Origin: a virus
Lineage: Duplodnaviria; Caudoviricetes
IMG/VR virus record: IMGVR_UViG_3300021959_007005
Length of the DNA stretch: 64,000 bases
Reading direction: 5' to 3' (one strand)
Positions 8,217-28,131 of this stretch are shown in pieces; the first letter of the stretch is position 1, and each line of letters begins with the position of its first letter. Under the pieces are notes generated by a model. The model was given only the letters and a program-made list of their open reading frames with translations. It had not been told where the DNA came from and searched no databases. Position numbers and translations under genes: made by a program.

Positions 8217-8245
8217 TTGACACTAATATGCATTGGTGCTATACG
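8217..8245 (+). promoter_or_regulatory. sigma70-type early promoter, degenerate member of the palindromic-spacer family
   Basis: TTGACA-CTAATATGCATTGGTGC(17 bp)-TATACG. Confidence 0.65.
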
Positions 8246-8277
8246 TTACGTATCTTAAACACAAATGGAGAAATAAA

Positions 8278-8466
8278 ATGGACTTTAATACACTACAAAA
8301 CATCCAAGTCGAGGATGTCGACATGAAAGACTATCCAAAATTTTGTGATGCTTATATCGCGTCTGCTGAACATGCAGATGGAACAGAACTTACTGATGCT
8401 GAATTAGAGCTAGTAAACAGTGACTCTTCTTTCGTCTACCAAGAAATTCAAAATTTTATTTGGTAA
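8278..8466 (+). CDS. Hypothetical early protein
   Basis: Start reassigned to the ATG at 8278 (GGAG SD): MDFNTLQNIQVEDVDMKDYPKFCDAYIASAEHADG... Confidence 0.7.
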   Translation: MDFNTLQNIQVEDVDMKDYPKFCDAYIASAEHADGTELTDAELELVNSDSSFVYQEIQNFIW

Positions 8467-8480
8467 AACGAAAAAAGTGT

Positions 8481-8520
8481 TTGACAATGGTTGCACCATT
8501 TGCTATAGATAGTGCAACCA
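8481..8520 (+). promoter_or_regulatory. sigma70-type promoter with a different inverted repeat
   Basis: TTGACA-17 bp-TATAGA; TGGTTGCAC (8488-8496) and GTGCAACCA (8512-8520) flank the -10. Confidence 0.6.
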
Positions 8521-8534
8521 ACGGAGATGATGAA

Positions 8535-8714
8535 ATGACAAAGTTTAACATTATTTTAAACGGAACAACTACACTACCAACTGGTGAAGTTAAAACTTTT
8601 GTGAATGAAGTTGAAACTACAGAAGATTGTTATGGCAATGCAGCTGAGTTTGTTTGCCTTTATCAAGAGTTTTATCCAGAAATTGACTTTAAAATAGAAG
8701 AGGTAACTGTATAA
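8535..8714 (+). CDS. Hypothetical early protein
   Basis: Start reassigned to the ATG at 8535 after GGAG SD. Confidence 0.65.
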   Translation: MTKFNIILNGTTTLPTGEVKTFVNEVETTEDCYGNAAEFVCLYQEFYPEIDFKIEEVTV

Positions 8715-8806
8715 TGTTGGAAGCAATTAATAATTGGGCTATTAATACATTGAGTACTACAATGAGTTTAATTGTAGTGGCTGGTATATTGAGCATAATG
8801 TCATGA
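8714..8806 (+). CDS. Putative 30-aa membrane peptide
   Basis: Hand-translated MLEAINNWAINTLSTTMSLIVVAGILSIMS; start and stop overlap both neighbours. Confidence 0.45.
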   Translation: MLEAINNWAINTLSTTMSLIVVAGILSIMS

Positions 8807-9033
8807 TATCAATTCCAGGGATTACACAGCAACAGAAAAAGTTGTTGGATATTATGTGGGATCTTGATAATCAAGAAGATTTATTAACTTGGTTTGACAC
8901 ACTTGATGACGATGAATTCCAACAAGCGGTTACACTTCATGAAATGATACTCATTGCAATGATGGAACACGATGATCGTGACAATTTAAACTTAGCACAA
9001 AAAATGTTAGCAGATATTGGAGTAGTATGTTGA
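8803..9033 (+). CDS. Hypothetical protein
   Basis: 76-aa ORF, ATGA overlap with the upstream ORF. Confidence 0.65.
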   Translation: MISIPGITQQQKKLLDIMWDLDNQEDLLTWFDTLDDDEFQQAVTLHEMILIAMMEHDDRDNLNLAQKMLADIGVVC

Positions 9034-9554
9034 GCCGTTTGAAACTTATACTTGGTATATTTGCATTATCTATTAATGTGATGATACTGATAACTGTAAC
9101 TGCAATAGTGTCACTTCAGTGGAATGAAGCACGAGCTGAACAACGATTAAAGCATGTTACTTCTGATGACGTATTTTGTTTACAACAAAATATTTATTTT
9201 GAAGCCCGTAATCAGAGTGTGTTGGGACAAGTTGCGGTTGCTTGGGTTACTCTCAATCGAATGACCGATACGTCTTACCCTAACAGTGTTTGTAAAGTAG
9301 TTTGGCAAAATAAGCAATTCAGCTGGACCCATGACGGTAAAAGCGATAAGCCAGGTAAAACTAAACTAGAGCAACGTGCTTGGGAAGATGCTGGGCTTGT
9401 GGCACAGATTGTACTTCTTGATTGGGCTCGAGCAAATAATAGTCCTATTTCAGAAGCTATTATGTATCACGCTAATTATGTTGATCCATATTGGACAGAT
9501 TCTTACGTTGAAGTAATCGTTATTGATGATCATATTTTTTATGAAAAAGGCTAA
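9027..9554 (+). CDS. Cell wall hydrolase, SleB/Hydrolase_2 family, N-terminal anchor
   Basis: CLQQNIYFEARNQSVLGQVAVAWVTLNR...YPNSVCKVVWQNKQFSW...YHANYVDPYW...IDDHIFY. Confidence 0.9.
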   Translation: MLSRLKLILGIFALSINVMILITVTAIVSLQWNEARAEQRLKHVTSDDVFCLQQNIYFEARNQSVLGQVAVAWVTLNRMTDTSYPNSVCKVVWQNKQFSWTHDGKSDKPGKTKLEQRAWEDAGLVAQIVLLDWARANNSPISEAIMYHANYVDPYWTDSYVEVIVIDDHIFYEKG

Positions 9555-9664
9555 CCTTTATTTTATTTACAAACTTATTATATAATAATCCATACTTTTG
9601 CTAGATTGCATTCTATGACTTCTTACTATATAACGTAAGAGTAACTTAACAAAAAGGAAAGACA

Positions 9665-9853
9665 ATGCAAATTAACCCATTATGGATTATGTTCGCAGTA
9701 GTATTTGGTGGTCTGGGTATTTGGCTTATTGCATTAGATGCACTAATGCCAGGTTTCTTAATGTGCTCCGGTGTATTAGGTTGGTTGTTTATAGCAAACA
9801 ACACAGGTCAACTATGGATCGAAGATGAAGACGAGGAGTATGAAGATGACTAA
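9665..9853 (+). CDS. Small two-TM protein with acidic tail
   Basis: Two hydrophobic segments then EDEDEEYEDD; AAGGA SD. Confidence 0.65.
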   Translation: MQINPLWIMFAVVFGGLGIWLIALDALMPGFLMCSGVLGWLFIANNTGQLWIEDEDEEYEDD

Positions 9854-9932
9854 TGAAATTATTATCTTAATGGTTGCAATCCCGGTAGTAGTTGCTATTA
9901 TAGCAATGTGCATAGATGTAGGAGACAGGTAA
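9846..9932 (+). CDS. Putative 28-aa membrane peptide
   Basis: Hand-translated MTNEIIILMVAIPVVVAIIAMCIDVGDR; overlaps both neighbours. Confidence 0.5.
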   Translation: MTNEIIILMVAIPVVVAIIAMCIDVGDR

Positions 9933-10075
9933 TGGAATATCTAACATATGAATTGTTGCAAAGAGTTGCAATAGGGTTTCTTGTAGGAGTAGGACTAGGA
10001 TGTATGATAATGCAAGTGTCCGCACTAGTGTGGATGTATTGGGATATGTTTAAGAGTAAACGCAATGGATCTTAA
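9932..10075 (+). CDS. Putative 47-aa membrane peptide
   Basis: Hand-translated MEYLTYELLQRVAIGFLVGVGLGCMIMQVSALVWMYWDMFKSKRNGS; TAATG coupling, GGAG SD. Confidence 0.55.
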   Translation: MEYLTYELLQRVAIGFLVGVGLGCMIMQVSALVWMYWDMFKSKRNGS

Positions 10076-10295
10076 TATCGCACTATCTAACCTAGCAGAA
10101 ATTGTAGTTTTAATTGTTGGTTTTGGAGTATGTGGCATAGTTTTTGCACATATGATGTCACTAGCAGATGTATCAACCAGACATGAAGATGATTATGAAG
10201 ATGAAGATGATTATGAAGATGATGATCTGTTTGAAGACGACGAGTTTACTGAAATGGATCGAGAAGACGAAGCTGAACTACAACGTATAGCATAA
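10065..10295 (+). CDS. Single-TM protein with highly acidic tail
   Basis: IVVLIVGFGVCGIVFA then EDDYEDEDDYEDDDLFEDDE. Confidence 0.65.
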   Translation: MDLNIALSNLAEIVVLIVGFGVCGIVFAHMMSLADVSTRHEDDYEDEDDYEDDDLFEDDEFTEMDREDEAELQRIA

Positions 10296-10303
10296 AGTAA
10301 TCA

Positions 10304-10328
10304 AAGGCACATCACTTGTGCCTTTTTT
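10304..10328 (+). terminator. Rho-independent terminator
   Basis: AAGGCACA-tcact-TGTGCCTT followed by a T run; TTGACA begins at 10330. Confidence 0.75.
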
Positions 10329-10363
10329 ATTGACAATAATTATCTTTATGTTACAATTTATAT

Positions 10364-11083
10364 ATGCTTATGAAAAATAAAGAAACAATATTAACATTCT
10401 ACCAAAAAGATAATCCAGTATTCGCTGAAGTATTTGCTCCTCGAACTAAACTTTATCCAGATTGGTGGCGATCATTAAAAGAATCCAAATCAGACACAAG
10501 TCGAAGTTTACATGATATTGTACCAACTATGAAAACGTGTCCAGGGTTTGTTGACTTATTAAGTACTGCTATTGCTATACCTATGTGGAGAGAAATAAAA
10601 ATCACATATGACACTCGAATTAGGAAAATAGAGATAGCTGGTGTTAATACTGACCAAGAACTAAGTGAACAGGCTGAAACTCATCCAAGTGTACAGTATG
10701 GAAATAATTTTAGTGATAGTATACATTTAAAATTAAAAAGTCCTTGGCTGACAGTCTGTAATGATAGAACAGAGTTTTTATTGCTGGATGCAACTTGGCA
10801 TCGGAATGAATTTTCTAATTATACAGTATTGCCTGGGAAATTAGAATTTAAATTTCAACACTCAGCGCATGTTAATCTATTCATACCAAAAAGTAAAGAA
10901 ACTAAGACATTCACAATAGAGCCAGGAACTCCAATTTGTTATCTATTACCATTAACAGATAAAGATATAAATATTGAGATTAAAACAGTTACTTGGGAAG
11001 AATGGCGCAGATTATTTCGACCTTGGATATGGTTCAGAGGCGGCTATACAAAACTAAAAAAATTATTTGATAAAGGAATTTAA
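10364..11083 (+). CDS. Conserved hypothetical phage protein (possible dUTPase-like beta fold)
   Basis: TMKTCPGFVDLL and IEPGTPICYLLP motifs typical of a family often found beside phage 2OG oxygenases; function not established. Confidence 0.55.
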   Translation: MLMKNKETILTFYQKDNPVFAEVFAPRTKLYPDWWRSLKESKSDTSRSLHDIVPTMKTCPGFVDLLSTAIAIPMWREIKITYDTRIRKIEIAGVNTDQELSEQAETHPSVQYGNNFSDSIHLKLKSPWLTVCNDRTEFLLLDATWHRNEFSNYTVLPGKLEFKFQHSAHVNLFIPKSKETKTFTIEPGTPICYLLPLTDKDINIEIKTVTWEEWRRLFRPWIWFRGGYTKLKKLFDKGI

Positions 11084-11084
11084 T

Positions 11085-11666
11085 ATGCATCTATTTCCAA
11101 TACTAATTTATGACCATGTTGTTGGGTTCGAGGAAGGTCAAAATATACAGACTGAGGCAGAATGGTTATACGAGAAAGCCCTACAAACTGGATTTTCAAA
11201 ACATCCTGGCTGGGAGAAAAATACTCACAGTCTCAGTGATCCTACCTTTGAAGAAAATATATTACATAAGCATCGATGTTATCATTTAATAGATAAAATT
11301 AATGAGTGTGTTAAAGAATATACTGATCAGTTACAGTCAGTACATAATGGATGGAAAATTACATCCAGTTGGTTAACTAGTACTGCACCTGGTGAGTATG
11401 CTAGACTGCATGACCATGGAACATCAGATATTTCTGGCGTCTATTATATTAAAACTCATACTGATACAGCTGGTAACATTTATTTTATAAGTCCTCTCGC
11501 AGTTACAAGAGCAACAAATTTAATGGTCAATTCACCAAGCCAACACGATATGCCGCCAGGAGTGCAATCTTTGTATCTATTTCCAGGATGGTTACAACAT
11601 GGTACACGTATAAACCAATGGGATCAAGATAGAATTAGTTTAAGTTTTAATGTAGATTTTCTTTAA
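11085..11666 (+). CDS. 2OG-Fe(II) oxygenase, TIGR02466-like phage family
   Basis: WLT...HDHGTSDISGVYY...LFPGWLQHGT...RISLSFN (H-x-H...H...RxS); start reassigned to 11085. Confidence 0.85.
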   Translation: MHLFPILIYDHVVGFEEGQNIQTEAEWLYEKALQTGFSKHPGWEKNTHSLSDPTFEENILHKHRCYHLIDKINECVKEYTDQLQSVHNGWKITSSWLTSTAPGEYARLHDHGTSDISGVYYIKTHTDTAGNIYFISPLAVTRATNLMVNSPSQHDMPPGVQSLYLFPGWLQHGTRINQWDQDRISLSFNVDFL

Positions 11667-11672
11667 TAGTTG

Positions 11673-11701
11673 TTGACACCAAGACGTATTGGTGTTAGAA
11701 C
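11673..11701 (+). promoter_or_regulatory. Early promoter with 18-bp dyad in spacer
   Basis: TTGACA-CCAAGACGTATTGGTGT-TAGAAC. Confidence 0.8.
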
Positions 11702-11738: not shown

Positions 11739-12146
11739 ATGGCATATGTATCACAAGCGATGAAAAAAGAATTAGCACCAGGCATTAAAGCTGTACTGAA
11801 AAAGTACAAAACCAAAGCCAGCATTAGTGTTAATAATCACTCAACAATTTGTGTAAACATTAAGAGCGGTCCAATTGACTTTATTGGCGAAGCTAATAAA
11901 AAGAATATGGAGATCGCAGAACGCCGTGGAACACCATACTATGAAAATGATGGATACATTCAAGTCAATGATTGCTATCCTGAAACATACGGTGCCGCTA
12001 GTGACTTCCTAGTAGAGCTTGTAGCTGCTATGAAAGGTCCAAAGTACTTTAATAATGACGACACAATGACTGATTATTTTAGTCGTTCACATTACACTGA
12101 CATTAATGTTGGTAAGTGGAACAAGCCATACGAGTGTGTGGCTTAA
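11739..12146 (+). CDS. Conserved hypothetical early protein
   Basis: 135 aa, GGAG SD, directly after the dyad promoter. Confidence 0.75.
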   Translation: MAYVSQAMKKELAPGIKAVLKKYKTKASISVNNHSTICVNIKSGPIDFIGEANKKNMEIAERRGTPYYENDGYIQVNDCYPETYGAASDFLVELVAAMKGPKYFNNDDTMTDYFSRSHYTDINVGKWNKPYECVA

Positions 12147-12740: not shown

Positions 12741-12769
12741 TTGACGCCAAAACGTCTTGGTGCTATAAA
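12741..12769 (+). promoter_or_regulatory. Early promoter with dyad spacer and phased upstream A-tracts
   Basis: TTGACG-CCAAAACGTCTTGGTGC-TATAAA; A6-7 tracts begin at 12711, 12721 and 12731 (10-bp phase, UP-element-like). Confidence 0.8.
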
Positions 12770-12801
12770 GTGTGAGTAAGTTAAACAAATGAGGTACTAA
12801 A

Positions 12802-13143
12802 ATGCAAGAACAGATTCAAACATTGATCCAAAAAGCCAAAGCAGACTACACAAAATTTGCTACTGCTGGCGGACGTGGTGAACCAGAAGCAGGTAGCTAC
12901 TTTGCTAAAGAACTTGCTAACTTTGAAAATAGTTTTACTGTTAAAGAAGGCAGTAAGTATATCAAACTAATCCGAGGCGGAGGTGTTTGGGGCTTTATTG
13001 TTAACACAGACAACGATAAAAAGTTTGTTAAAGGTGATATCCTTAAAGCCGCAGGTTATAATGCTCCAGCTCGTAACGCTGCACGTGGCAATGTTTTTGG
13101 TGAATACAATGTAGCATGGACTGGCCCACATTATTTGAAATAA
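12802..13143 (+). CDS. Conserved hypothetical T4-like phage early protein
   Basis: GSKYIKLI...VWGFI...KGDILKAAGYNAPARNAARGNVF pattern; GAGG SD. Confidence 0.75.
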   Translation: MQEQIQTLIQKAKADYTKFATAGGRGEPEAGSYFAKELANFENSFTVKEGSKYIKLIRGGGVWGFIVNTDNDKKFVKGDILKAAGYNAPARNAARGNVFGEYNVAWTGPHYLK

Positions 13144-13251: not shown

Positions 13252-13280
13252 TTGACACCAATACGTATTGGTGTTAAAAC
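13252..13280 (+). promoter_or_regulatory. Early promoter with perfect dyad spacer
   Basis: TTGACA-CCAATACGTATTGGTGT-TAAAAC; ACACCAATACGTATTGGTGT (13255-13274) is a perfect 20-bp palindrome. Confidence 0.8.
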
Positions 13281-13311: not shown

Positions 13312-13815
13312 ATGTCTGTAATTGATAAAGCATTTGCATTTGCCACCGCAGCACACGCCGCAGTTGGACAAAAAAGAAAGTATGATGGTGCACCTTACAT
13401 TGTTCATCCTCAGAGAGTTGCTGATATTGTTAGAACATATGGAGGCAGTGACGATCAGATTGCCGCCGCTTACCTACATGATGTTGTGGAGGATACACAA
13501 GTTGACATTGATACTATTCGTGACATGTTTGGCGATACTATCGCTGATTTGGTTTCAGACCTTACAGATGTGTCTTGTTCCTATGATGGCAATAGAGCAA
13601 CCAGAAAATCAATAGACATGGAGCACACACTCTGTGGCAGTGTTGATGCACAGTTTGTTAAACTGGCTGATATATTGGATAACAGTCAGGACATCAAAGA
13701 AAATGATCCTAGTTTTTGGAAAGTATACCAAAAGGAAATGCTTGCACTATTAGAAGGAATGACAGATTGTACTATGTTCCCTCTATATGCTAAAGCATTG
13801 GACAGTGTTAGTTAA
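13312..13815 (+). CDS. Stand-alone HD-domain hydrolase, Mesh1/SpoT-hydrolase ((p)ppGpp hydrolase) family
   Basis: AFAFATAAH..GQKRKYDGAPYIVHP..VA...AAAYLHDVVEDT...VKLADILDN; no synthetase domain. Confidence 0.85.
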   Translation: MSVIDKAFAFATAAHAAVGQKRKYDGAPYIVHPQRVADIVRTYGGSDDQIAAAYLHDVVEDTQVDIDTIRDMFGDTIADLVSDLTDVSCSYDGNRATRKSIDMEHTLCGSVDAQFVKLADILDNSQDIKENDPSFWKVYQKEMLALLEGMTDCTMFPLYAKALDSVS

Positions 13816-14589: not shown

Positions 14590-14677
14590 GACGATATCCT
14601 TGTTATGTTTATTTATTCTTTTATTGACAACTATTATAAAATAGTATATTGATAGTTAGAGAGTTTAAATAAAAGAG

Positions 14678-15793
14678 GTGAGAATAATGCAGAATATAGT
14701 TAGTTTAAACAGCCTTTACAAAAGAGATTCAAAAGGCAAAGTTCGTATTTGGACTATAGAGTTTGGATACGACAATGAAGATACAGCAGGTATCCGCAGT
14801 ATTAGCGGGTTAGTTGATGGCGAGAAGATCACAAGTGTTTGGAACATAAGTGAAGCAAAGAACGTAGGACGTTCAAATGCCACTACTGCAAGAGAGCAAG
14901 CACAAGATGAAGCACATGCACAGTGGACTAAAAAAGCTGACAAAGAATATTTTGCAGACGTAAACAAAATCGATACGTATGAAAAGTTCAAGCCAATGCT
15001 TGCACATGATTATACCAAGCGTCCACAAAGCGAAGGTTACAGTCAACCTAAACTAGATGGTATCCGTTGTGTAGCAGATGCTAACGGACTATGGACACGT
15101 AGCGGCAAAGCCATTACAAGTTGTCCGCATGTTTGGGAAAGTGTAAAGCCATTTATTGACGCTAATCCAGGCATTGTACTGGATGGTGAGCTTTACAATC
15201 ACGACCTTAAAGCAGACTTTCAAAAGATTGTTAGCCTTGTGCGTAAAGTAAAATGTCGTCCAGAAGAGATTGCAGAAAGTGCAGAGCTTGTGCAGTATCA
15301 CGTATATGATTGCTATATCCCAGACATGGAGTTCGCAGACCGTATCAAAATTGCCAAAGGTGCAAAAAGTGATGTTGTACATATTGTACAAACAGATTAT
15401 GCTAGTTTCCAGGAGGAACTAGATGCACTGTACAGCGATTATATGGAACGTGGATATGAAGGACAAATGATCCGCAATAACACACCATACGAATGTAAAC
15501 GTAGCAAAAATCTACTCAAGCGTAAAGAGTTTATCACAGAAGAGTTTGACGTAGTAGAGGTAATAGAAGGACAAGGTGCATGGACTGGATATGCAAAACG
15601 TTTTGTTCTTGCAATGCCAGATGGCACACAGTTTGGCAGTGGAGTACGTGGCACTCAAGCACAACTCAAAGAGCTGTTGGAAACGGAAGTAAAACCCAAT
15701 TGGGTTACTTGTAGATTCTTCGAATACAGCAACGACGGTGTACCTCGCTTTCCAGTAGTAATTGATTATGGTGTAGGAGTACGTAATGATTGA
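14678..15793 (+). CDS. ATP-dependent DNA ligase
   Basis: KPMLAH...QPKLDGIRC (motif I), LDGELY (III), YHVYD (IIIa), YEGQMIR (IV), LLKRK (V), OB-fold PRFP; TTGACA at 14624 upstream. Confidence 0.95.
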   Translation: MRIMQNIVSLNSLYKRDSKGKVRIWTIEFGYDNEDTAGIRSISGLVDGEKITSVWNISEAKNVGRSNATTAREQAQDEAHAQWTKKADKEYFADVNKIDTYEKFKPMLAHDYTKRPQSEGYSQPKLDGIRCVADANGLWTRSGKAITSCPHVWESVKPFIDANPGIVLDGELYNHDLKADFQKIVSLVRKVKCRPEEIAESAELVQYHVYDCYIPDMEFADRIKIAKGAKSDVVHIVQTDYASFQEELDALYSDYMERGYEGQMIRNNTPYECKRSKNLLKRKEFITEEFDVVEVIEGQGAWTGYAKRFVLAMPDGTQFGSGVRGTQAQLKELLETEVKPNWVTCRFFEYSNDGVPRFPVVIDYGVGVRND

Positions 15794-16070
15794 ATCAGTT
15801 AAACAATTTTTTAAAGATAGTTATACACTGTCACCATTGGCATTTTACTGTGAACTAGTTGAGGCAGTAATGCTAATAGGTGCTAGTGCAGTACTAACAT
15901 TTACTGTGCTAGATCCAGCAACTAAAATCTTCATTCCAATGTATTTGGTAGGCAGTATACTTGGTGTGATTAGTACTTGGATTAGGCGGGCTGGATTTGC
16001 TATTGTTCTGACACTTTGGTTTGTTGTAATGAATAGCATTGCTATGGTGCAATTATTTGTATTAAGCTAA
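15786..16070 (+). CDS. Small polytopic membrane protein
   Basis: Three hydrophobic segments in 94 aa. Confidence 0.7.
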   Translation: MIESVKQFFKDSYTLSPLAFYCELVEAVMLIGASAVLTFTVLDPATKIFIPMYLVGSILGVISTWIRRAGFAIVLTLWFVVMNSIAMVQLFVLS

Positions 16071-16101
16071 ATAATGATATACATGTATTAAAGGAAAAAT
16101 A

Positions 16102-16575
16102 ATGGACGATTTAAATAGAGTAAGAGAACTGGCAGGAGTGCCATTATTAGAGTCTCACGTTAGTTCAGAAATTGAGTCAGCAGAAGTAGTAGAAAAAGAA
16201 ACTACTGAAGAAGAAGCAGTCGACGAAGCGGGTGATTATTATACTAAAGGTGTTTGGAAATTAATTGATGCACATGGTGCCGATGCAGTACTAAGAGAAA
16301 TGCTGCGATTTTTACATGCTGATGTGATTCAAGATTTTACAAACCATGTGCATGATGCAGATGCTATGTCATTTGAATCAACAGCTAATGAAGGCGAGAC
16401 AAAACCCAAATTTGTGTTTACAGTAATTAATTCTAATACGTTGCTAATTGTTAACGATAACACAGGGGAGCAACGTTATGCAAACAATGTTACGCTGCCG
16501 TCGCTGTATGATGTAACACAAGCACAACTTGCAAAATTATTTAAAACTGGAACACATTCAGACGCTCGGTCTTAG
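16102..16575 (+). CDS. Hypothetical late/virion-type protein
   Basis: CTAAATAA box and AAGGA SD; N-terminal LNRVRELAGVPLLE motif, Glu-rich linker. Confidence 0.7.
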   Translation: MDDLNRVRELAGVPLLESHVSSEIESAEVVEKETTEEEAVDEAGDYYTKGVWKLIDAHGADAVLREMLRFLHADVIQDFTNHVHDADAMSFESTANEGETKPKFVFTVINSNTLLIVNDNTGEQRYANNVTLPSLYDVTQAQLAKLFKTGTHSDARS

Positions 16576-16669: not shown

Positions 16670-16697
16670 AGCGAAGGATTAAACCTTCGCTTTTTTC
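16670..16697 (+). terminator. Rho-independent terminator abutting an early promoter
   Basis: AGCGAAGG-attaaa-CCTTCGCT plus T run. Confidence 0.8.
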
Positions 16698-16726
16698 TTG
16701 ACATCAATACGTCTTGGTGCTATTGT
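16698..16726 (+). promoter_or_regulatory. Early promoter with dyad spacer
   Basis: TTGACA-TCAATACGTCTTGGTGC-TATTGT. Confidence 0.8.
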
Positions 16727-16757: not shown

Positions 16758-16901
16758 ATGTATACAGTAGAATATGGATACTATAACTACCCAAAAAAGA
16801 TACGCACTTTCAAAACATATGAAAGCGCCAAAAAGTTTTTTTACTACATCGGAAAACAAAACGGTGTGAAAAAAGCAGAACTCACAGTACCAGGATCATA
16901 A
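16758..16901 (+). CDS. Hypothetical 47-aa early protein
   Basis: Hand-translated MYTVEYGYYNYPKKIRTFKTYESAKKFFYYIGKQNGVKKAELTVPGS; GAGGT SD after the dyad promoter. Confidence 0.65.
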   Translation: MYTVEYGYYNYPKKIRTFKTYESAKKFFYYIGKQNGVKKAELTVPGS

Positions 16902-16903
16902 TA

Positions 16904-17179
16904 ATGGAAGACATCATGCCAATTCAAGAACTCAAAGAACTTTTGAGTAATGAAATCGTAACTGTAACATTTACAAAACTTAATGGTGAAGAGCGTACTA
17001 TGCCCTGTACATTAATGGAAACTTATTTGCCTGAAGCAAAAAAAGAAGATCCATTAACACAGAAGAAAATTAGAACTCTTAATGAAAACGTACAAGTTGT
17101 ATGGGCTTTAGAGAGTAATGGCTTTCGTAGTTTTCGTTATGACCGTGTAACTAAAATTGAGGTTAAAAATGACTCGTAA
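16904..17179 (+). CDS. WYL_2-like (DUF2693) SH3-fold protein
   Basis: LLSNEIVTVTFTKLNGEERTMPCTL...VWALESNGFRSFRYDRV. Confidence 0.7.
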   Translation: MEDIMPIQELKELLSNEIVTVTFTKLNGEERTMPCTLMETYLPEAKKEDPLTQKKIRTLNENVQVVWALESNGFRSFRYDRVTKIEVKNDS

Positions 17180-17318
17180 TGAAATAATAGATGATGCCAT
17201 TGGTGTTATGTTGCTTGCTGTATTTGCTTTTGGGTGGATGGATACTCTTTGGATTTTTGGTGTGGAAAATAGTCAACAATACACTTGGTGGAATTTAATT
17301 CAGTATTTTGCCAATTAA
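17169..17318 (+). CDS. Putative 49-aa membrane protein
   Basis: Hand-translated MTRNEIIDDAIGVMLLAVFAFGWMDTLWIFGVENSQQYTWWNLIQYFAN; GAGG SD. Confidence 0.55.
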   Translation: MTRNEIIDDAIGVMLLAVFAFGWMDTLWIFGVENSQQYTWWNLIQYFAN

Positions 17319-17322
17319 TACA

Positions 17323-17351
17323 TTGACAAACTATTGTAATAGTAGTATAAC
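17323..17351 (+). promoter_or_regulatory. sigma70-type promoter
   Basis: TTGACA-17 bp-TATAAC; spacer holds an ACTATT-gt-AATAGT inverted repeat. Confidence 0.7.
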
Positions 17352-17387
17352 GTATGAATAAAGTTAAGTAGATCAGGAGATAATAAA

Positions 17388-17579
17388 ATGAGTGCTACAA
17401 AAAATTGGATGATGGCAGTAGAAGAAACTTTTTGGGACTGTGTTAACGATATTATGAAGCAATCTTCAACTTTAAATGAGGCTATTGAAAGATCAGTTTC
17501 ATTAGGTAAACCAATGGTTCCACATATTAGCGAATCTCAGATTGACGAAGCAGTTTCAGAAATGTATACACATGGATGA
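17388..17579 (+). CDS. Hypothetical protein
   Basis: 63 aa, AGGAG SD. Confidence 0.65.
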   Translation: MSATKNWMMAVEETFWDCVNDIMKQSSTLNEAIERSVSLGKPMVPHISESQIDEAVSEMYTHG

Positions 17580-17814
17580 GAACCAAATGTTAGAAACACT
17601 TAAACAGGAGTACCTAGGTATGAAGTTTGTAGTTGAATTTAAAAAGCATATGACAACTGGCATTTTGCAAGGTCTTACTTTCGATGAAAAGATGAACTTT
17701 GTAGACTGGAGCGATGCTTGTGATTGGGCAAGTAAAGTTACTGCCAGTGCAAAAGTACCGTTTAATATTCTTGAAATGCATAACCCTTTAACTGGTGAAA
17801 TGGAGACATTTTAA
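17572..17814 (+). CDS. Hypothetical protein
   Basis: Start reassigned to 17572 (MDENQMLETLKQEY...). Confidence 0.6.
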   Translation: MDENQMLETLKQEYLGMKFVVEFKKHMTTGILQGLTFDEKMNFVDWSDACDWASKVTASAKVPFNILEMHNPLTGEMETF

Positions 17815-17972
17815 TGAACGATCTATTAGAAGATATCGCAGTAATGGAAAGCGTACTTATTGCAATGGCAGAAGGTGCTAGTGATGAACGCCGAATGGCA
17901 CTTGGTTATATGGAAAACTTAGTTGCTAAAAAACAATTAATAGTAGAGGAATTTGAGAAACAAGCAGAATAA
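17814..17972 (+). CDS. Hypothetical 52-aa protein
   Basis: Hand-translated MNDLLEDIAVMESVLIAMAEGASDERRMALGYMENLVAKKQLIVEEFEKQAE; TAATG coupling, GGAG SD. Confidence 0.6.
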   Translation: MNDLLEDIAVMESVLIAMAEGASDERRMALGYMENLVAKKQLIVEEFEKQAE

Positions 17973-18003
17973 TTAATATTACAAAAAAGGAGCAGGTAAT
18001 ATT

Positions 18004-18213
18004 TTGAGTAATAAAGAGGTTGATTTTGAAGATGCAATGTCGGATGATGACTATGGTATTATTATTAGTAGAACTGGAGAGCTAAAAGGTCTATTTGTTC
18101 CAAAAATTATCAATAATAATGAAAACGTGCCAGATAGTATTGTTGCAATCATTACTGACATTTTTGGATTAGAACTTGATGGAAATGAAGAAAATAATAT
18201 AACAATACACTGA
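18004..18213 (+). CDS. Hypothetical protein
   Basis: TTG start with AGGAG upstream. Confidence 0.6.
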   Translation: MSNKEVDFEDAMSDDDYGIIISRTGELKGLFVPKIINNNENVPDSIVAIITDIFGLELDGNEENNITIH

Positions 18214-18222
18214 GGAGTTTAA

Positions 18223-18468
18223 ATGACAATACCTAATGCTTTTGAAGTAACTAATGATCGTCGGGAAGCAACAAAGCTCGCTGAGTTTATCGCGAACCTA
18301 ACTTATTCGACTGGAGAAGATTATAAACTAGCAAACACGTTGAGTGAAATTTCACGAAATTTACAATCATTTAATGAAATATTTGGATATAGATGGAATG
18401 ATTTTAGTCAGGAACATCAACGTATTATAGTTCAATGCAAAAAATTAATGGAAAAAGAAGTGAAATAA
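18223..18468 (+). CDS. Hypothetical protein
   Basis: 81 aa, GAGGAG SD. Confidence 0.65.
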   Translation: MTIPNAFEVTNDRREATKLAEFIANLTYSTGEDYKLANTLSEISRNLQSFNEIFGYRWNDFSQEHQRIIVQCKKLMEKEVK

Positions 18469-18469
18469 A

Positions 18470-18646
18470 ATGGGAAGATTTAGTGTAACTGATGAAGATC
18501 AGAAATTAATTGACGAGTATTTAAAAAAAGGTGGCGAGGTAACAATTTGTAAGAAATTTGCTCGTACAGAAGAAGAAGACATTCGTTATCTATGGAAAAA
18601 GAAAGCATTCAATCCTCCAAAAAAAGTTGACACTGATGACAAATAG
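18470..18646 (+). CDS. Hypothetical 58-aa protein
   Basis: Hand-translated MGRFSVTDEDQKLIDEYLKKGGEVTICKKFART...; I.EYLxKGG.V pattern common in small phage proteins. Confidence 0.6.
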   Translation: MGRFSVTDEDQKLIDEYLKKGGEVTICKKFARTEEEDIRYLWKKKAFNPPKKVDTDDK

Positions 18647-18685
18647 TGTTAGATATATTATGAATTAGAAATAAAGGATGAAGAA

Positions 18686-19270
18686 ATGAAATTTAGAAAA
18701 GATATAATTTTAACTGATGTAGATGGTGTCTTACTTGATTGGGAAAGTAAATTTACTCAATGGATGGAAACCAAAGGGTTTCGACCAGAACCTGAGCAAT
18801 ATAGTTATGAAATGAACCTTCGTTTTGGTTTAAAAAAACCACACGTTAAAGAGCTAATACGTCAGTTCAATGAAAGTGCCTGGATTGGATTCTTACAACC
18901 ATTACGTGATTCAGTAGAAGGGGTTCGTATATTACACCAAGAAAAAAAATGGAGGTTCGGCGCTATTACAAGTTTATCCGAAGATCCATTTGCTACACAG
19001 TTACGTAAAAATAATTTAGAACTAATTTTCGGAGAAGACACGTTTGACTTTGTAAAATGTATCGATACTGGTGCAGATAAAGACAATGAGCTTTTGCCAT
19101 ATAAAGACAGTGGTCTTTATTGGCTAGAAGATAAGCCTGAGAATGCACTACTAGGTGCAGACCTAGGATTAAACACAATTCTAATGCGGCATAAACATAA
19201 CGCAAATTTTTATGATGAACGTATCAAAGTTGTGGACAATTGGACTCAAATTGTTAATACTATAACTTAG
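18686..19270 (+). CDS. HAD-superfamily phosphatase (5'(3')-deoxyribonucleotidase-like)
   Basis: ILTDVDGVLLDWE (DxD), AITS (motif II), WLEDKPEN (motif IV); TTGACA at 18627. Confidence 0.85.
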   Translation: MKFRKDIILTDVDGVLLDWESKFTQWMETKGFRPEPEQYSYEMNLRFGLKKPHVKELIRQFNESAWIGFLQPLRDSVEGVRILHQEKKWRFGAITSLSEDPFATQLRKNNLELIFGEDTFDFVKCIDTGADKDNELLPYKDSGLYWLEDKPENALLGADLGLNTILMRHKHNANFYDERIKVVDNWTQIVNTIT

Positions 19271-22788: not shown

Positions 22789-25032
22789 TTGTCTAATGAA
22801 GATAAGATTGAAAAAATCGTAAACAAGACATTTATGTTGAGTAAAGATTACCGTCACCACTATGTAACTATTGAGCATTTACTAGCTATTATTCTTGATT
22901 TAGATGAAGTGAAGGATATTGTTTCTGATTTTAGTGTAGATCCATCTGATATAAGCAGAGAAGTATACGATCATTTAGCAGATTCAGTTGATAGTTATCC
23001 AGATGCTACAGAACAAGAACCCAAAAAGACTGTCATGTTGGAGCGAGTATTCCATAGAGCATTTACGCAAGCATTGTTCAATGGCCGTAATAACTTAGAC
23101 CCCAGAGATTTACTGATTAGTATTTTATCAGAGCAACAAACGCCAAGTGCTTTTATTTTACAAAAATACGGTATTGACAGAGATGCAGTTAGTAACTATC
23201 TTCAGGATATTAATCGTATTCGAGAGCAAAATATTAATCAAGATTCATCACCAACAATTACAAAAGCTGACAAGATATTACGTAAATTTTGTGAAAATTT
23301 AAATGAATCAGCAGCTAGTGGTAAAATAGATGCTATTGTTGGTAGAGAAGAAGAATTAGCCGAAACAGTACAGACCCTTGCTCGTCGTAAAAAGAATAAT
23401 GTTGTACTTGTTGGTGATAGTGGTGTTGGCAAAACTGCCATTGCCGAAGGACTTGCTTATTTAATCAATGAAGGAAGTGTTCCTGATCTAATACAAGGAC
23501 ATATTGTTTATAGTTTAGATTTAAGTGCTTTATTAGCTGGTACTAAATTTAGAGGAGACTTTGAAGACCGACTTAAAGAAGTACTAGATGTATTAGAAAA
23601 AAGAGACGATGCTATTTTGTTTATTGATGAAATACATATGATTATGGGAGCAGGCAATAGTGGATCCGGTGCAATGGATGTTGCTAATATGTTAAAGCCA
23701 GCACTACAAAAAGGAAAGTTGCGTTGTCTTGGTAGTACAACCTATGATGAATACCGCCAACATTTTGAAAAAGATAAGGCACTTGTACGTAGATTTCACA
23801 AAGTAGACGTACCTGAGCCAAGTGTGGCAGATGCAAAGCGTATAATTAATAACAGCATATATCCATATGAAGCACACCACGAGATTGCATTTACTAAGAA
23901 CGCACTTGATGGTGCAGTAGACTTAACTGCACAATATTGGCATAATAAATTTCTTCCAGATAAAGCATTTGATGTAATTGATAGTGCGGCGGCTCGTCAA
24001 CGGTTACTTCCCAAAGACGATCGTAAGAGTATTATTGACTTAGATGAAATTAGATTTGAGGTTGCTAAACTAACAAGGATACCAATTGACCAATTAGTAT
24101 TAACCAAAGATAGTGAGTACAAAAAAGAAAAGCCTGTAGATATTGAAAAGCAATTAAATCTTAAAGTGTTTGGCCAATCAGAAGCTATCACTAAGTTAGC
24201 TGATAGTATTTACATTGCGAAAGCAGGTCTTAAAGCAGAAGATAAACCAATTGGTAGTTACTTGTTTAGTGGACCAACGGGTGTTGGTAAAACAGAAACA
24301 GCAAAGCAGCTCAGTAATACCATGGGAATGGAATTATTACGTTTTGATATGAGTGAATATCAAGAAAGACATACAGTATCAAAACTTATCGGCAGTCCTC
24401 CAGGCTACGTTGGATTTAGTGAAGGCGGTTCAGGTAGTGGTCTGTTAATTAATAAACTAGAAGAAAATCCAAATAGTATTTTACTATTAGATGAGATTGA
24501 AAAGGCTCATCCAGACGTTAGTAACGTATTGTTACAACTAATGGATAATGGAATGGTTACATCAAGTGACGGCAAAACAGTCAGTGCTAGAAATTGTATT
24601 ATTATACTTACAAGTAATTTAGGTGCTGCTGATAGCGAAAAGAACTTAATTGGCTTTGGTGCTGGAAAAAATGAGTCAGCAGCAGGTGAGGCAGTTAAAA
24701 GTTTCTTTAGTCCAGAGTTTAGAAATAGACTTGATGCAATTGTGCAATTTAAAAAATTAGACAGAACATTGATGAAAAATGTTACAGTTAAGTTTATTAC
24801 TGAACTAGAAGCAATGTTAACTCCACGGGAGATTGTACTATTATATGATGATAAAGTAATTGAATGGCTAACTGACAATGGATTCAGTGAAACAATGGGC
24901 GCAAGGCCGATGGCACGTGTCATTAATCAACAAATCAAAAAACCGCTTGCTAAAGAATTATTATTTGGTAGTGACATTAAAACAGTAACACTGGAAATAT
25001 TAGATGGCAGTATTAACATTACAACAAATTAA
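22789..25032 (+). CDS. clpA: ClpA-type Hsp100 AAA+ chaperone
   Basis: Clp N-domain; NBD1 GDSGVGKT/LFIDEIH; NBD2 GPTGVGKT/LLLDEIEKAH; IGF ClpP-docking loop; no ClpB middle domain. Confidence 0.93.
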   Translation: MSNEDKIEKIVNKTFMLSKDYRHHYVTIEHLLAIILDLDEVKDIVSDFSVDPSDISREVYDHLADSVDSYPDATEQEPKKTVMLERVFHRAFTQALFNGRNNLDPRDLLISILSEQQTPSAFILQKYGIDRDAVSNYLQDINRIREQNINQDSSPTITKADKILRKFCENLNESAASGKIDAIVGREEELAETVQTLARRKKNNVVLVGDSGVGKTAIAEGLAYLINEGSVPDLIQGHIVYSLDLSALLAGTKFRGDFEDRLKEVLDVLEKRDDAILFIDEIHMIMGAGNSGSGAMDVANMLKPALQKGKLRCLGSTTYDEYRQHFEKDKALVRRFHKVDVPEPSVADAKRIINNSIYPYEAHHEIAFTKNALDGAVDLTAQYWHNKFLPDKAFDVIDSAAARQRLLPKDDRKSIIDLDEIRFEVAKLTRIPIDQLVLTKDSEYKKEKPVDIEKQLNLKVFGQSEAITKLADSIYIAKAGLKAEDKPIGSYLFSGPTGVGKTETAKQLSNTMGMELLRFDMSEYQERHTVSKLIGSPPGYVGFSEGGSGSGLLINKLEENPNSILLLDEIEKAHPDVSNVLLQLMDNGMVTSSDGKTVSARNCIIILTSNLGAADSEKNLIGFGAGKNESAAGEAVKSFFSPEFRNRLDAIVQFKKLDRTLMKNVTVKFITELEAMLTPREIVLLYDDKVIEWLTDNGFSETMGARPMARVINQQIKKPLAKELLFGSDIKTVTLEILDGSINITTN

Positions 25033-25681
25033 AAATTTACCAGAATTTACCTATGCTACTGGAATATATTATAAAAAGTTTCCTTGGCGTATTCAGTTTT
25101 GGCAACCAGAGTTCTTTAGACGTGGATTTTATAAAGATCTAGAGCATGAGAATGCATGGAGAACTTGTATGATACGTAATATGGACATCAACTCACTTTT
25201 AAAAAATCAATTAGGATATGAACGTTGGAAGGTTAGGCGAGACAGAAAGTTTTTTGTATATCTGACTGAACATAATTTAATATCTAAATTAGTAGATCGT
25301 TGGGGTGAAGATATATTGCAAATACAAGGGCCTATTAACCAAAAACATCAAGAGCTTATGATTGATAATTTAGACTTGGTAACAAAAAAAGAACTTTGGT
25401 ATAATAAATTTAGATATAAGGTTAGCTTTACTAGACATGGTAGACAACCACTCGACATACTGTCTGAAATTTTTGAGTTTGTTGATGAAACATTTGACGC
25501 AAATAATTATCAGATGAATCATATTATGAAGCGGTCTATTAGGCACAAGACAATGCACGATCCTTATACTAACACTGGTACTATATTTTTAAAAGAATAT
25601 GATGATGTTGCCACATTGCATCTGATGTTTAAGAAACACATAACATCAACCAAAAAATGTGTTCTAATAAATGAACTGTAA
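25004..25681 (+). CDS. Hypothetical protein
   Basis: 225-aa ORF overlapping the clpA end. Confidence 0.65.
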   Translation: MAVLTLQQIKNLPEFTYATGIYYKKFPWRIQFWQPEFFRRGFYKDLEHENAWRTCMIRNMDINSLLKNQLGYERWKVRRDRKFFVYLTEHNLISKLVDRWGEDILQIQGPINQKHQELMIDNLDLVTKKELWYNKFRYKVSFTRHGRQPLDILSEIFEFVDETFDANNYQMNHIMKRSIRHKTMHDPYTNTGTIFLKEYDDVATLHLMFKKHITSTKKCVLINEL

Positions 25682-25712
25682 TAAATACATGTAACTAATA
25701 GGATATTGTGCT

Positions 25713-25883
25713 ATGGCAAAGATGAATGAAGATATGGTCGTTATTAAAGTAAGCGAACTAATTCGAGACGATCAATCAGCATCAGAGATACTTAACGGAG
25801 AAATAATCTCCACTATAGAAGAAGCAGTACAAGCTCTAGTCGGCGCTGGTAAATTAGTGGAGATTATTAAAGATGAAAGCTAA
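25713..25883 (+). CDS. Hypothetical 56-aa late protein
   Basis: Hand-translated MAKMNEDMVVIKVSELIRDDQSASEILNGEIISTIEEAVQALVGAGKLVEIIKDES; ATAAATAC at 25681, AGGA SD. Confidence 0.65.
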   Translation: MAKMNEDMVVIKVSELIRDDQSASEILNGEIISTIEEAVQALVGAGKLVEIIKDES

Positions 25884-26199
25884 AGAATTTACAATTAACG
25901 TACCAATTAATATTAAGATTAATGGTGACGGCGATCCTGAAATTGATATGGGACAAAATGATGATGGTTATGAAAAGTCTGATGGACTTGACCCAGATCC
26001 ATTAATGGTTCCACCATTACAGCAAAACTTAGAACTTAAAAAAGCTGCATTAGGTAAAGATAGTGAAGCAATTGATAAAATTACATCTGATGATATCCCA
26101 TCAGATGAACAAGAACAAATTGATAATGACAGTATGGATAATTTTCGCAAGGCGTTGGGTTTAGTACAGGATGGTGGCAACGGCGCAGAGGTGGAATAA
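25873..26199 (+). CDS. Hypothetical acidic virion-type protein
   Basis: MKAKEF start; MVPPLQQNLELKK motif. Confidence 0.65.
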   Translation: MKAKEFTINVPINIKINGDGDPEIDMGQNDDGYEKSDGLDPDPLMVPPLQQNLELKKAALGKDSEAIDKITSDDIPSDEQEQIDNDSMDNFRKALGLVQDGGNGAEVE

Positions 26200-26865
26200 A
26201 TGTCTGTTCAAAAATTAGTTACTAGTCTTAATAAAAAACTTGATGGTCCTGATTATGTAGGCGAAAAGAATAGACTATTTTTTGATCTTGCAACTAGATC
26301 ATTTAGACTCAGTGACGGCGTGACACCAGGCGGTATAGTATTACAAGGCGGTGGTGGCGGAGGCGGTGGTGGTTTAACTGGTATTACTGATTTTGCAACT
26401 AGCAGTGTTGTTGAGCTTACTGATACTCAAATAACAATTACAGGTGCTGCACTATTAGAATCTGACGAGACTATTGATCCTGTTACAAAATATGAATATG
26501 TGTTATACGGCACAACAGTTAATAACACAGTATCAGAACTTTATAGAGATTCACTCAATAATAAAATTATCTTAGATAATAATACAACTTATTTTTATGA
26601 AATTGATGTAATAGGCAGAGGTAATGCAGGAACTAATCATGCCGCCATACAATTTACTGGTGCAATCAATGTTGACAATTATGGTAGTATGAGTAAAATT
26701 AATGAACAAAAAACTACTATTTCATCTGGACCAGGATTTGATTTAGATGCTATAATCGGCCTAACCTCTAATGATACTTCACTAAATGTTTCAGGCAGTG
26801 GAAGAGCTTCAAGTACTATTAGATGGACGGCACTTGTAAAATTAATTGAAGTTAAACAGATTTAA
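26200..26865 (+). CDS. Putative virion/fibre-associated protein
   Basis: LFFDLATRSFRLSDGVTPGG resembles fibre N-terminal modules; poly-Gly hinge, then a beta-rich domain. Confidence 0.55.
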   Translation: MSVQKLVTSLNKKLDGPDYVGEKNRLFFDLATRSFRLSDGVTPGGIVLQGGGGGGGGGLTGITDFATSSVVELTDTQITITGAALLESDETIDPVTKYEYVLYGTTVNNTVSELYRDSLNNKIILDNNTTYFYEIDVIGRGNAGTNHAAIQFTGAINVDNYGSMSKINEQKTTISSGPGFDLDAIIGLTSNDTSLNVSGSGRASSTIRWTALVKLIEVKQI

Positions 26866-26935
26866 ACACATAAAATAGATAAATAAATATATAGGTACAC
26901 AATATAGTGTAATGAATTTTTAGAGGAGACCAGAA

Positions 26936-27190
26936 ATGGCTTTAACAACAAACGCAGCAACCAAAGCAGGCAACGGCTTAGGTTCAGTAACACAAATCGT
27001 TTCAGCAGCACCATCAGATCAAGCGGCATTAGATGCATTTGAAAAAGCAGTAGGCGCAGCAGGACACACAATTGCAGGCGTCGACGGCGCACACGGCGGA
27101 ACAATGCACTTTGCAATCCAAGGTGGCGGTGCAGTAGCTAACCCAACAGGCGCAGAAGCAACAGCAATTGTTGCAACATTTGAAGACTAA
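26936..27190 (+). CDS. Small Ala/Gly-rich putative virion protein
   Basis: Late box, strong GAGGAG SD, own terminator; highly biased codon use. Confidence 0.7.
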   Translation: MALTTNAATKAGNGLGSVTQIVSAAPSDQAALDAFEKAVGAAGHTIAGVDGAHGGTMHFAIQGGGAVANPTGAEATAIVATFED

Positions 27191-27209
27191 GTTTTAGTAA
27201 TACTAAAAT

Positions 27210-27238
27210 AAAAGCAGTGTTTCGGCACTGCTTTTTTT
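27210..27238 (+). terminator. Rho-independent terminator (UUCG loop)
   Basis: AAAAGCAGTGT-TTCG-GCACTGCTTTTTTT. Confidence 0.85.
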
Positions 27239-27274
27239 ATGACTAAATACAGGTAGAGTATATAGGAGATTAAA

Positions 27275-27622
27275 ATGGTAGCAAGAGCAACAAACAATTT
27301 AAATGCATTTAGCCACACAAATGGAATTGCCGAAGATGTAGAAATGTTTACAATTGATGGTGGTGCAACACTGGCAAATGAAACTAATCCAGGCGAAGCT
27401 ATGGACGCAATTACAAGATGTATTGAAGAATTTTCAAATATTATTGCAGTAGGAGTAGAAGATACTGCTGGTGCATTTCGTATTATGTTACATGGTGGTA
27501 AATGGAAAGCGGCGACATTACAGGACGCACTAAGGGTATTAGGACCAACAGCAAACGGACTAAACGTTGGATCAAATAATTATGACTTATCAGGTGCAAC
27601 AGTAGTCGATTTTGAATTCTAA
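27275..27622 (+). CDS. Small putative virion protein
   Basis: CTAAATAC box at 27243, AGGAG SD, own terminator. Confidence 0.7.
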   Translation: MVARATNNLNAFSHTNGIAEDVEMFTIDGGATLANETNPGEAMDAITRCIEEFSNIIAVGVEDTAGAFRIMLHGGKWKAATLQDALRVLGPTANGLNVGSNNYDLSGATVVDFEF

Positions 27623-27645
27623 ATTATAAAGAATATCCCCAGAAG

Positions 27646-27672
27646 AAGGCGCATTTCGATGCGTCTTTTTTT
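27646..27672 (+). terminator. Rho-independent terminator (UUCG loop)
   Basis: AAGGCGCAT-TTCG-ATGCGTCTT plus T run. Confidence 0.85.
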
Positions 27673-27693
27673 ATGATTTCTTACAATTAAGTG

Positions 27694-27722
27694 TTGACAC
27701 CAAGACGTATTGGTGCTATATG
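27694..27722 (+). promoter_or_regulatory. Early promoter with dyad spacer
   Basis: TTGACA-CCAAGACGTATTGGTGC-TATATG. Confidence 0.8.
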
Positions 27723-27761
27723 TAGTACATAGAAAACAACATAACAAAGAAGGAAGACAAA

Positions 27762-28106
27762 ATGCAAACTCAGTTAAGCACAGCAGAAACCGGATTTGGA
27801 ATTTGGAACCGTTACGTTAATAAGTCAGGCTCTAATAAATCAATACGTTTTAGCTTTGAGCGTGAAACTCAAAACGGTGAGTGGGCATATGATCTTCCAA
27901 TTTGGAATATCAAATATACAGAAGATGGCTTTCATTATACTACAGTTGGTTGTGTTACAGCGTTTCCAGGAGATGGTGTACAAGCTACTATAAGAGGTTA
28001 TGATACGGTCAAAGGTGTAGATCCGTTTACAGTGTTTGAAGATGCAGTTGAAGCCGCCGCAGATTTTGATTTAGAAGAGTTTTATAGAGCAAAAGAAAGT
28101 GATTGA
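27762..28106 (+). CDS. Hypothetical early protein
   Basis: 114 aa after the dyad promoter; AAGGA SD. Confidence 0.7.
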   Translation: MQTQLSTAETGFGIWNRYVNKSGSNKSIRFSFERETQNGEWAYDLPIWNIKYTEDGFHYTTVGCVTAFPGDGVQATIRGYDTVKGVDPFTVFEDAVEAAADFDLEEFYRAKESD

Positions 28107-28131
28107 CACCAAGACGTCTTGGTGCTATGGT
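28103..28131 (+). promoter_or_regulatory. Early promoter with perfect dyad spacer
   Basis: TTGACA-CCAAGACGTCTTGGTGC-TATGGT; CACCAAGACGTCTTGGTG (28107-28124) is a perfect palindrome. Confidence 0.8.

Follow-up and report, generated by a model that had tools for sequence, protein, structure and literature searches.

The window analysed here, a stretch of 64,000 nucleotides from the IMG/VR virus record IMGVR_UViG_3300021959_007005 (Duplodnaviria; Caudoviricetes), originates from an uncultured marine T4-like jumbo phage and contains seven sigma70-type promoters that carry a dyad-symmetric element in the spacer between their −35 and −10 hexamers. As judged from the sequence, these promoters appear to form a coordinated class located before early-type genes, which supports the proposal made for this DNA in a first-pass annotation. 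The dyad itself is interpreted, with moderate confidence, as the probable operator of a dimeric, sequence-specific DNA-binding protein.

A motif scan of the kind suggested by the first-pass annotation was run on the 64-kb window. Using the pattern CACCAANACGTNTTGGTG and allowing ≤3 mismatches, eight matches were obtained (8221, 11677, 12745, 13256, 16702, 27698, 28107, and 56019), representing the seven sites already reported and an eighth copy at 56019. Shuffled sequences contained, on average, 0.22 matches, and none of the 100 shuffles reached eight. The seven sites were all confirmed at their positions, each featuring the −35 hexamer TTGACA (TTGACG at 12741), a 17-bp spacer, and a −10 hexamer of the form TAnnnn; the copy at 8217, described previously as degenerate, indeed deviates from the pattern by three mismatches. 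Furthermore, TG was present at the extended −10 position of all seven promoters, and a Shine–Dalgarno sequence (SD) and the ATG of the gene follow, the latter 61–68 nt after the start of the −35 hexamer. The promoters and the leader of the last one are given below.

8217–8245, plus strand: early promoter with degenerate dyad (CACTAATATGCATTGGTG); drives 8278–8466 and the small genes after it.
11673–11701, plus strand: early promoter with perfect CC-type dyad; drives the 135-aa gene 11739–12146 (phrog_10415).
12741–12769, plus strand: early promoter with −35 TTGACG and a dyad with one mismatch; drives 12802–13143.
13252–13280, plus strand: early promoter with perfect dyad; drives the HD_4 hydrolase-like gene 13312–13815.
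16670–16726, plus strand: terminator hairpin (16670–16691) followed directly by an early promoter, dyad with one mismatch; drives 16758–19270, including the WYL_2 gene.
27641–27722, plus strand: terminator hairpin (27641–27672) and early promoter (27694–27722) with perfect dyad; drives 27762–28106.
28103–28131, plus strand: early promoter with perfect dyad (central GACGTC); drives 28164–29595.
28132–28163, plus strand: example of a leader, with GTATAAGTTAAACAAA preceding the SD; this conserved word recurs after the promoters at 12741, 13252, and 16698.

With the exception of the HD_4 hydrolase-like and WYL_2 proteins, the products encoded behind the dyad promoters are mostly small and acidic proteins of unknown function. 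The dyad comprises 14–18 bp in two half-sites, CACCAAnAC and GTnTTGGTG, and its register is fixed within the 17-bp spacer. All seven −10 hexamers in the window differ from one another, whereas the dyad is nearly invariant. Alignment columns of the spacer and dyad reached approximately 1.5–2.5 bits and most −10 columns remained below 0.9 bits, indicating that conservation has sharp limits and covers the −35 hexamer and the dyad alone; in this alignment, both strands of each palindrome were pooled and the set was largely motif-searched, so that the dyad columns are partly ascertained.

No cultured phage was found to carry the motif. A near-identity search with 12 kb of the region returned no match among cultured phages, and the promoter plus leader used as the query against them gave only insignificant matches (E ≥ 0.5). 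The family-B DNA polymerase and the ClpA-like ATPase are approximately 45% identical to those of jumbo phages such as Atu_ph07, Phosso, and RaK2, and dozens of related uncultured viral contigs were found with polymerase identities between 53% and 99%. The nearest record, G001, is a 78-kb fragment that is 97%-identical to the window. T4-type late promoters (TATAAATA) are used by the phage, and the sequencing runs containing this DNA are labelled as marine, estuary, or seawater metagenomes. Most of the relatives entering the conservation counts were retrieved by a pattern search for the motif itself; the relatives retrieved via the Fis-like protein, the orthologues of the 135-aa gene, and the orthologues for the copies at 56019 and 29213 are free of this bias. 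A literature search for the letters of the motif returned only primers in unrelated papers.

Across the relatives, two main half-sites were found, namely CACCAAGAC (CC-type) and CAGTAAGAC (GT-type), which occur in symmetric or mixed combinations and are sometimes shifted by 1 bp. In the window, the variable positions are dyad-symmetric, as noted before; they are the two at ±3 from the centre and are often non-complementary (G/A, A/C, T/C). Of the 35 distinct sites compared across the relatives, 15 are complementary at pair 3/16 and 20 at pair 4/15. Since mixed half-sites are common, the pattern fits two half-sites read by a protein, and not a hairpin. The energy predicted for the hairpin is not conserved, varying between −4.0 and −12.1 kcal/mol (z-scores between −0.45, at 16698, and −4.6), and the stem is not followed by a U-tract. 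These features, i.e., mixed non-complementary half-sites, unconserved energies, and no U-tract, speak against a structured RNA hairpin or intrinsic terminator. In agreement with the first-pass annotation, the mixed half-sites, the unconserved energy, and the conserved copies outside promoters suggest a separate, sequence-specific element. An explanation of the dyad as a lone surviving restriction site was likewise rejected because ACGT is not avoided in the window (218 observed vs. 193.5 expected).

In relatives of the GT-type (L141, L157, and L160), a second palindrome, AAAAAAGACGTCTTTTTT, having the same GACGTC core, was observed approximately 25 nt before the −35 hexamer at the 135-aa-gene promoter; its centre lies 24 bp upstream of that of the spacer dyad. 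The two palindromes may represent a paired operator, or the second one a weak terminator.

Promoter function and the dyad are separable, the latter being an add-on. In relatives retrieved via the Fis-like protein, promoters of the form TTGACA-17-TATAAT precede the same leader word, and their spacers are unrelated and non-palindromic; in the whole contigs of these relatives (17–116 kb), the number of dyad promoters was not above the control count. Contigs of the clade at 75% polymerase identity (57 and 91 kb) contained no dyad promoters, and those of the clade at 79% contained one dyad variant each. Four CC-type dyad promoters and three weaker GT-type pattern matches (two mismatches, at the pattern level only) were distributed across 100 kb and both strands of a related contig of 133 kb. 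The window itself also harbors intergenic sigma70 promoters without the dyad (10330, 46596, and 51708).

Conversely, copies of the dyad were also detected inside genes of the window:

56019–56036, no strand assigned: CC-type dyad, inner 16 bp perfect, within the 3′ end of gene 55044–56105 and approximately 85 bp before the next gene (56122).
29213–29230, no strand assigned: GT-type dyad TAGTAAGACATCTTACTG within the RyR-domain gene 29038–29595, no promoter context.

At 56019, a TTGACA is shifted upstream by 2 bp relative to the promoters, giving a 19-bp spacing, and only a poor −10 is present. This dyad was recovered letter-for-letter in four of seven relatives, despite changed neighbouring codons, and was absent in the other three. 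The copy at 29213 achieved a position weight matrix score of 17.7, compared to 0.33 matches of ≥12 per shuffle. Among 13 orthologues of the RyR-domain gene (57–98% amino acid identity), 12 kept GTAAGACATCTTAC at the spanned synonymous sites, and one lost the dyad via three joint synonymous changes.

The arrangement of the promoters resembles that of promoter-early stem-loop (PeSL) cassettes, which were described for the T4-type phages RB49/phi1, T4/PST, and KVP40/nt-1 (Arbiol et al. 2010, PMC2839356; Comeau et al. 2014, PMC4122927). The units of the window work like PeSLs and largely qualify as such, featuring a sigma70 promoter close to the consensus (17-bp spacer), AT-rich sequence upstream of it, SD and ATG at the 3′ end, a location in a hyperplastic region before small ORFans, and, between close relatives, indel breakpoints within the elements. 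The likeness is partial concerning the terminator hairpin, which lies directly upstream in two of the seven units (16670–16691 and 27641–27672) and is frequent in relatives. In contrast to the published PeSLs, a palindrome is present in the spacer and dyad copies occur within genes; the palindrome goes beyond what has been described for PeSLs, and neither ‘spacer’ nor ‘palindrom’ occurs in PMC2839356 (0 occurrences each).

Compared to G001, alignment blocks break at 27693–27741 and at 28097/28100, both corresponding to promoter units. Two extra gene cassettes, each with its own dyad promoter, are present in G001 and absent from the window. The TGA stop (28104–28106) of gene 27762–28106 falls within the −35 hexamer of the 28103 promoter, and a 520-bp cassette of G001 is inserted exactly at this overlap. 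Synteny of the late module with relatives stops at 8146, just before the first promoter, which lies in divergent sequence bordering the conserved late module. The promoter units also mark the places where related phages swap gene cassettes. At the fetched loci, 37 dyad promoters were located before genes of 20 unrelated families, and the upstream flanks held no information; the alternative of a recent duplication with equally conserved flanks, raised in the first-pass annotation, was thus not borne out.

Regarding a possible mechanism, the seven sites represent strong promoters for the host RNA polymerase, having a consensus −35, a 17-bp spacer, the extended −10 TG, and a weak −10 hexamer, and head short cassettes of small early-type genes in the hyperplastic region. 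A dimeric protein on the dyad, covering −31 to −14, would exclude RNA polymerase. Because the dyad is positioned within the core of an activator-independent promoter, a bound protein would occlude the polymerase and thereby shut off or throttle the whole class. The copies in genes at 29213 and 56019 might serve as auxiliary or roadblock sites. The sites, their layout and conservation, their separability from the promoter, and the cassette breakpoints are shown by the sequences; that a protein binds, that it represses, when it acts, and where it comes from are what we infer here, a phage-encoded early or middle product being more likely than a host factor. In a more specific version, which is considered distinctly unlikely, marine T4-like jumbo phages, presumed to be without the T4 AsiA/MotA logic, would shut their early promoter class by means of a lineage-specific repressor; the spacer operator would co-evolve (CC-type, GT-type, or dyad-less), and intragenic operators would allow looping or roadblocks. 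As part of this version, binding of the repressor might distinguish injected, 7-deazaguanine-modified DNA from newly replicated DNA.

Repressor operators between or across the −35 and −10 hexamers are represented by lambda OR/OL, P22 Pant with Arc/Mnt, LexA boxes, and tetO. The dyad resembles these classical operators in being a two-fold symmetric site of 14–18 bp inside the core of a strong, activator-independent promoter, a position that implies steric exclusion. It differs in that about ten dispersed sites are present rather than one immunity region, and in that the phage looks virulent and T4-like, the dyad being a candidate operator only. Dispersed operators of phage repressors include the C1 operators of P1, the gp71 stoperators of mycobacteriophage L5, and the conserved inverted repeats of phiC31. 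These systems belong to lysogeny repressors of temperate phages, and the P1 and L5 sites are asymmetric. In common with them, a short site is repeated over a large phage genome, both in promoters and inside transcription units, and the copies at 29213 and 56019 resemble stoperator-like or auxiliary sites; in contrast to them, no integrase or lysogeny module was seen in this window. In MerR-type promoters, the dyad is centred in an over-long spacer of 19–20 bp and the regulator is required for activity. The central position of the dyad in the spacer is similar, but the optimal 17-bp spacer in seven of seven promoters departs from this type, only the copy at 56019 having a 19-bp spacing together with a poor −10. 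The early promoters of T4 feature very strong −35/TGn/−10 elements with extra conserved positions and undergo a coordinated shut-off a few minutes into infection, for which neither ModA nor AsiA is needed and the mechanism is stated to be unknown, the review concluding that strategies yet to be discovered must exist (Hinton 2010, PMC2988021). No spacer palindrome or operator is described in that work, whereas a discrete candidate operator is present here.

Three regulators had been put forward as candidates in the first-pass annotation, none of which could be retained. The Fis-like helix-turn-helix (HTH) protein (7249–7491; HTH_8, E 9e-9), encoded behind a late promoter, is kept at 51–86% identity in relatives that are without the dyad in their contigs (17–116 kb) and early promoters. 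The DsbA-like protein (46659–46919) is encoded by a core gene beside polB in 51 of 51 related loci, including dyad-less ones, and was also found in the cultured jumbo phages PA5oct, Phosso, and Atu_ph07. For the WYL_2 protein (16904–17179), Pfam gave the WYL_2 family only and no DNA-binding domain. Further proteins were rejected as well: the 109-aa protein behind the 28103 promoter exhibited only a sub-threshold match to TetR_C_41 (E 8e-4) and nothing in PHROGs or Atlas, a basic protein of 113 aa was DUF7717-like only, and the 53/85-aa family that is common behind the dyad promoters of relatives is absent from the window. The other early proteins tested returned nothing in Pfam, PHROGs, or Atlas. 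Among the gene families enriched near the dyads of relatives, which comprised ORFans and genes for replication and recombination, an obvious regulator was not apparent.

Just upstream of the Fis-like HTH gene, a 20-bp palindrome, GGTGTTAAAATTTTAACACC, was observed at 7205–7224 between two divergent late-type promoters (TATTTATC on one side and TATAAATA on the other). Every relative examined has this palindrome, in some cases as a symmetric variant (e.g., GGTGTAAATTATTTTACACC), and it could be the Fis-like protein’s own operator or two overlapping extended −10 promoters. As a target of the Fis-like HTH, it is more likely than the spacer dyad.

A number of findings weigh against the dyad being an operator. 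The outermost CA/TG of the 18-mer coincide with the end of the −35 hexamer and with the extended −10 TG, and therefore only the inner 14 bp want a separate explanation. No candidate for the cognate DNA-binding protein survives among the window proteins tested by Pfam, PHROGs, and Atlas, and the presence of HTH_8, which Pfam recognised as the sole DNA-binding domain of the window, does not follow that of the dyad. Apparent conservation is inflated because most relatives came from the motif search. Metatranscriptome contigs covering the region allow neither levels nor timing to be read, and stretches without coverage carry no meaning. A protein-based retrieval of the 135-aa early gene yielded orthologues at 80 loci (35–96% identity); before this gene, the dyad of close relatives (85–96% amino acid identity) is of the CC-type, a variant, or mixed, GT-type half-sites being included in some cases, or is missing altogether, and the leader is constant. 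Owing to this instability at an orthologous promoter, the dyad appears to be dispensable for at least some promoters and to be moved by recombination. Cassette recombination at promoter units is demonstrated, and the free position of the dyad tends to be uniform within a genome (A in five of five copies in G001, and T in three of four copies in G005), so that part of the identity possibly reflects concerted evolution and not selection. The last points can be extended to an explanation without any regulator, according to which the identity would merely result from PeSL-type cassette dynamics. Promoter units would spread and become homogenised by homologous or site-specific recombination, and the identical block of 24 bp, including its palindrome, would serve as the substrate of this recombination or be targeted by a nuclease or recombinase. 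The indels of G001, which start and end at promoter units, the exchange of the spacer next to a constant leader before the 135-aa gene, and the largely uniform free position within G001 and G005 are in line with this explanation; in addition, PeSLs are documented to mediate such shuffling, with site-specific recombination left open by the authors (PMC2839356, PMC4122927). However, a palindrome is not required for homologous recombination and is absent from the published PeSLs. Moreover, only the −35 hexamer and the dyad are strongly conserved, with lower values at the −10 (in the strand-pooled, partly motif-ascertained alignment), the dyads in genes are kept at synonymous sites and are not cassette boundaries, and no recombinase or nuclease was found by Pfam among the window open reading frames scanned. 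PeSL-like cassette recombination explains part of the sequence identity among the sites, but a wholly regulator-free origin is regarded as possible and yet unlikely.

It was also considered that the dyad is the operator of a borrowed host transcription factor, for example, coupling early expression to host physiology. The restriction of the motif to some lineages of close phages, which possibly infect different hosts, would fit this idea, as would the fact that no phage-encoded candidate emerged. However, the exact 18-mer was found in 116 stretches of one-genome-per-species prokaryote contigs, compared to approximately 140 estimated by chance (16 fixed bases, 596 Gb). In this exact-match search, the 116 matches were scattered over unrelated phyla without clade enrichment, and none occurred in a TTGA...TA promoter context; this argument is weak, as host operators may be degenerate and the host is perhaps unrepresented. 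Overall, a host factor is judged to be quite improbable. Even less probable is a role of the spacer that is intrinsic to promoter strength or structure, such as optimised polymerase contacts, a cruciform, or, in transcripts reading through the site, an RNA hairpin acting in processing or termination. T4 early promoters do possess extra consensus beyond −35, TGn, and −10 (PMC2988021), and the symmetry derives partly from the −35 and extended −10, with the palindrome reaching 26 bp at 11673 and 13252. This is opposed by the relatives that have unrelated spacers with the same −35, −10, and leader, by the mixed non-complementary half-sites, the unconserved hairpin energy (z = −0.45 at 16698), and the missing U-tract, and by the position of the element upstream of its own transcription start. 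An operator bound by a dimeric protein is therefore preferred here as the most suitable reading of the dyad.

The leader words reported for these transcripts were also recovered, with AGTTAAACAAA-like words at 12774, 13285, 16729, and 28136, and TAGAAA(A)CAAC at the 11673 and 27694 promoters. The second leader type reads TAGAAACAAC at the latter two, and the first type, GTATAAGTTAAACAAA, is also present in relatives whose promoters are without the dyad. Directly after the −10, the leader word GTATAAGTTAA(A)CAAA (loci L127, L130, and L139, and the window) was observed to be conserved far beyond the dyad-bearing lineage and is thus an older feature of these early transcripts; it could represent a start region, a translation signal, or an RNA-level signal.

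Metatranscriptome contigs from two studies start at 27728 and 27737. Since the −10 of the 27694 promoter ends at 27722, its transcription start (+1) is predicted at approximately 27728–27729, and the start of an RNA contig at this position is a weak hint that the promoter is in use. RNA contigs of two studies also start at 28792/28793, 3 nt before the ATG of 28795–29037 and 20 nt after the late-promoter-like word CATAAATA, and are deeper there than upstream. The region 28765–28795 may contain an internal late promoter or a processing site.

A generic promoter scan of the window yielded 81 matches vs. 84.6 in shuffles, caught one of the seven sites, and hence had no power. Besides the seven promoters, a decayed relative was recognised:

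9606–9634, plus strand: decayed early promoter TTGCAT-17 bp-TATAAC, upstream of 9665–9853, with the same leader type and a spacer resembling the GT-type dyad of relatives (CTATGACTTCTTAC).

A different spacer palindrome, ACTATT-N4-AATAGT, follows TTGACA at 14624–14658, before the DNA-ligase operon (14687–16575), and hints at a second operator-like class. A terminator hairpin and a near-consensus promoter without dyad (TTGACA, 16 bp, TACAAT with TG) were observed at 10303–10363; as the ATG of 10364–11083 is placed approximately 6 nt after the −10, the mRNA would be leaderless. Furthermore, CGCG is strongly depleted in the whole window (7 observed vs. 40 expected from trinucleotides), unlike ACGT and CTAG. 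Two paralogous small basic proteins (52441–52764 and 56838–57125; pI 9.8 and 9.3) have the motif SINDIK-DLIKIIEP in common, are located in and just after the deazaguanine/folE gene cluster (51247–56811), and belong to no Pfam family.

For the biology of these phages, the dyad provides a bait for the factor and a marker for annotating early genes in many uncultured marine relatives. As the early shut-off of T4 is unexplained, a discrete candidate operator in a T4 relative represents a useful lead. The two half-site types together with the dyad-less relatives constitute a natural experiment, in which the partner protein could be sought via phylogenetic profiling of complete genomes. PeSL-like cassettes would, moreover, be able to carry regulatory cargo, i.e., a gene landing behind such a unit would gain expression and any regulation conferred by the dyad. 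If a lineage-specific repressor indeed acts on these sites, this would offer a concrete mechanism for early shut-off, which is unexplained even in T4.

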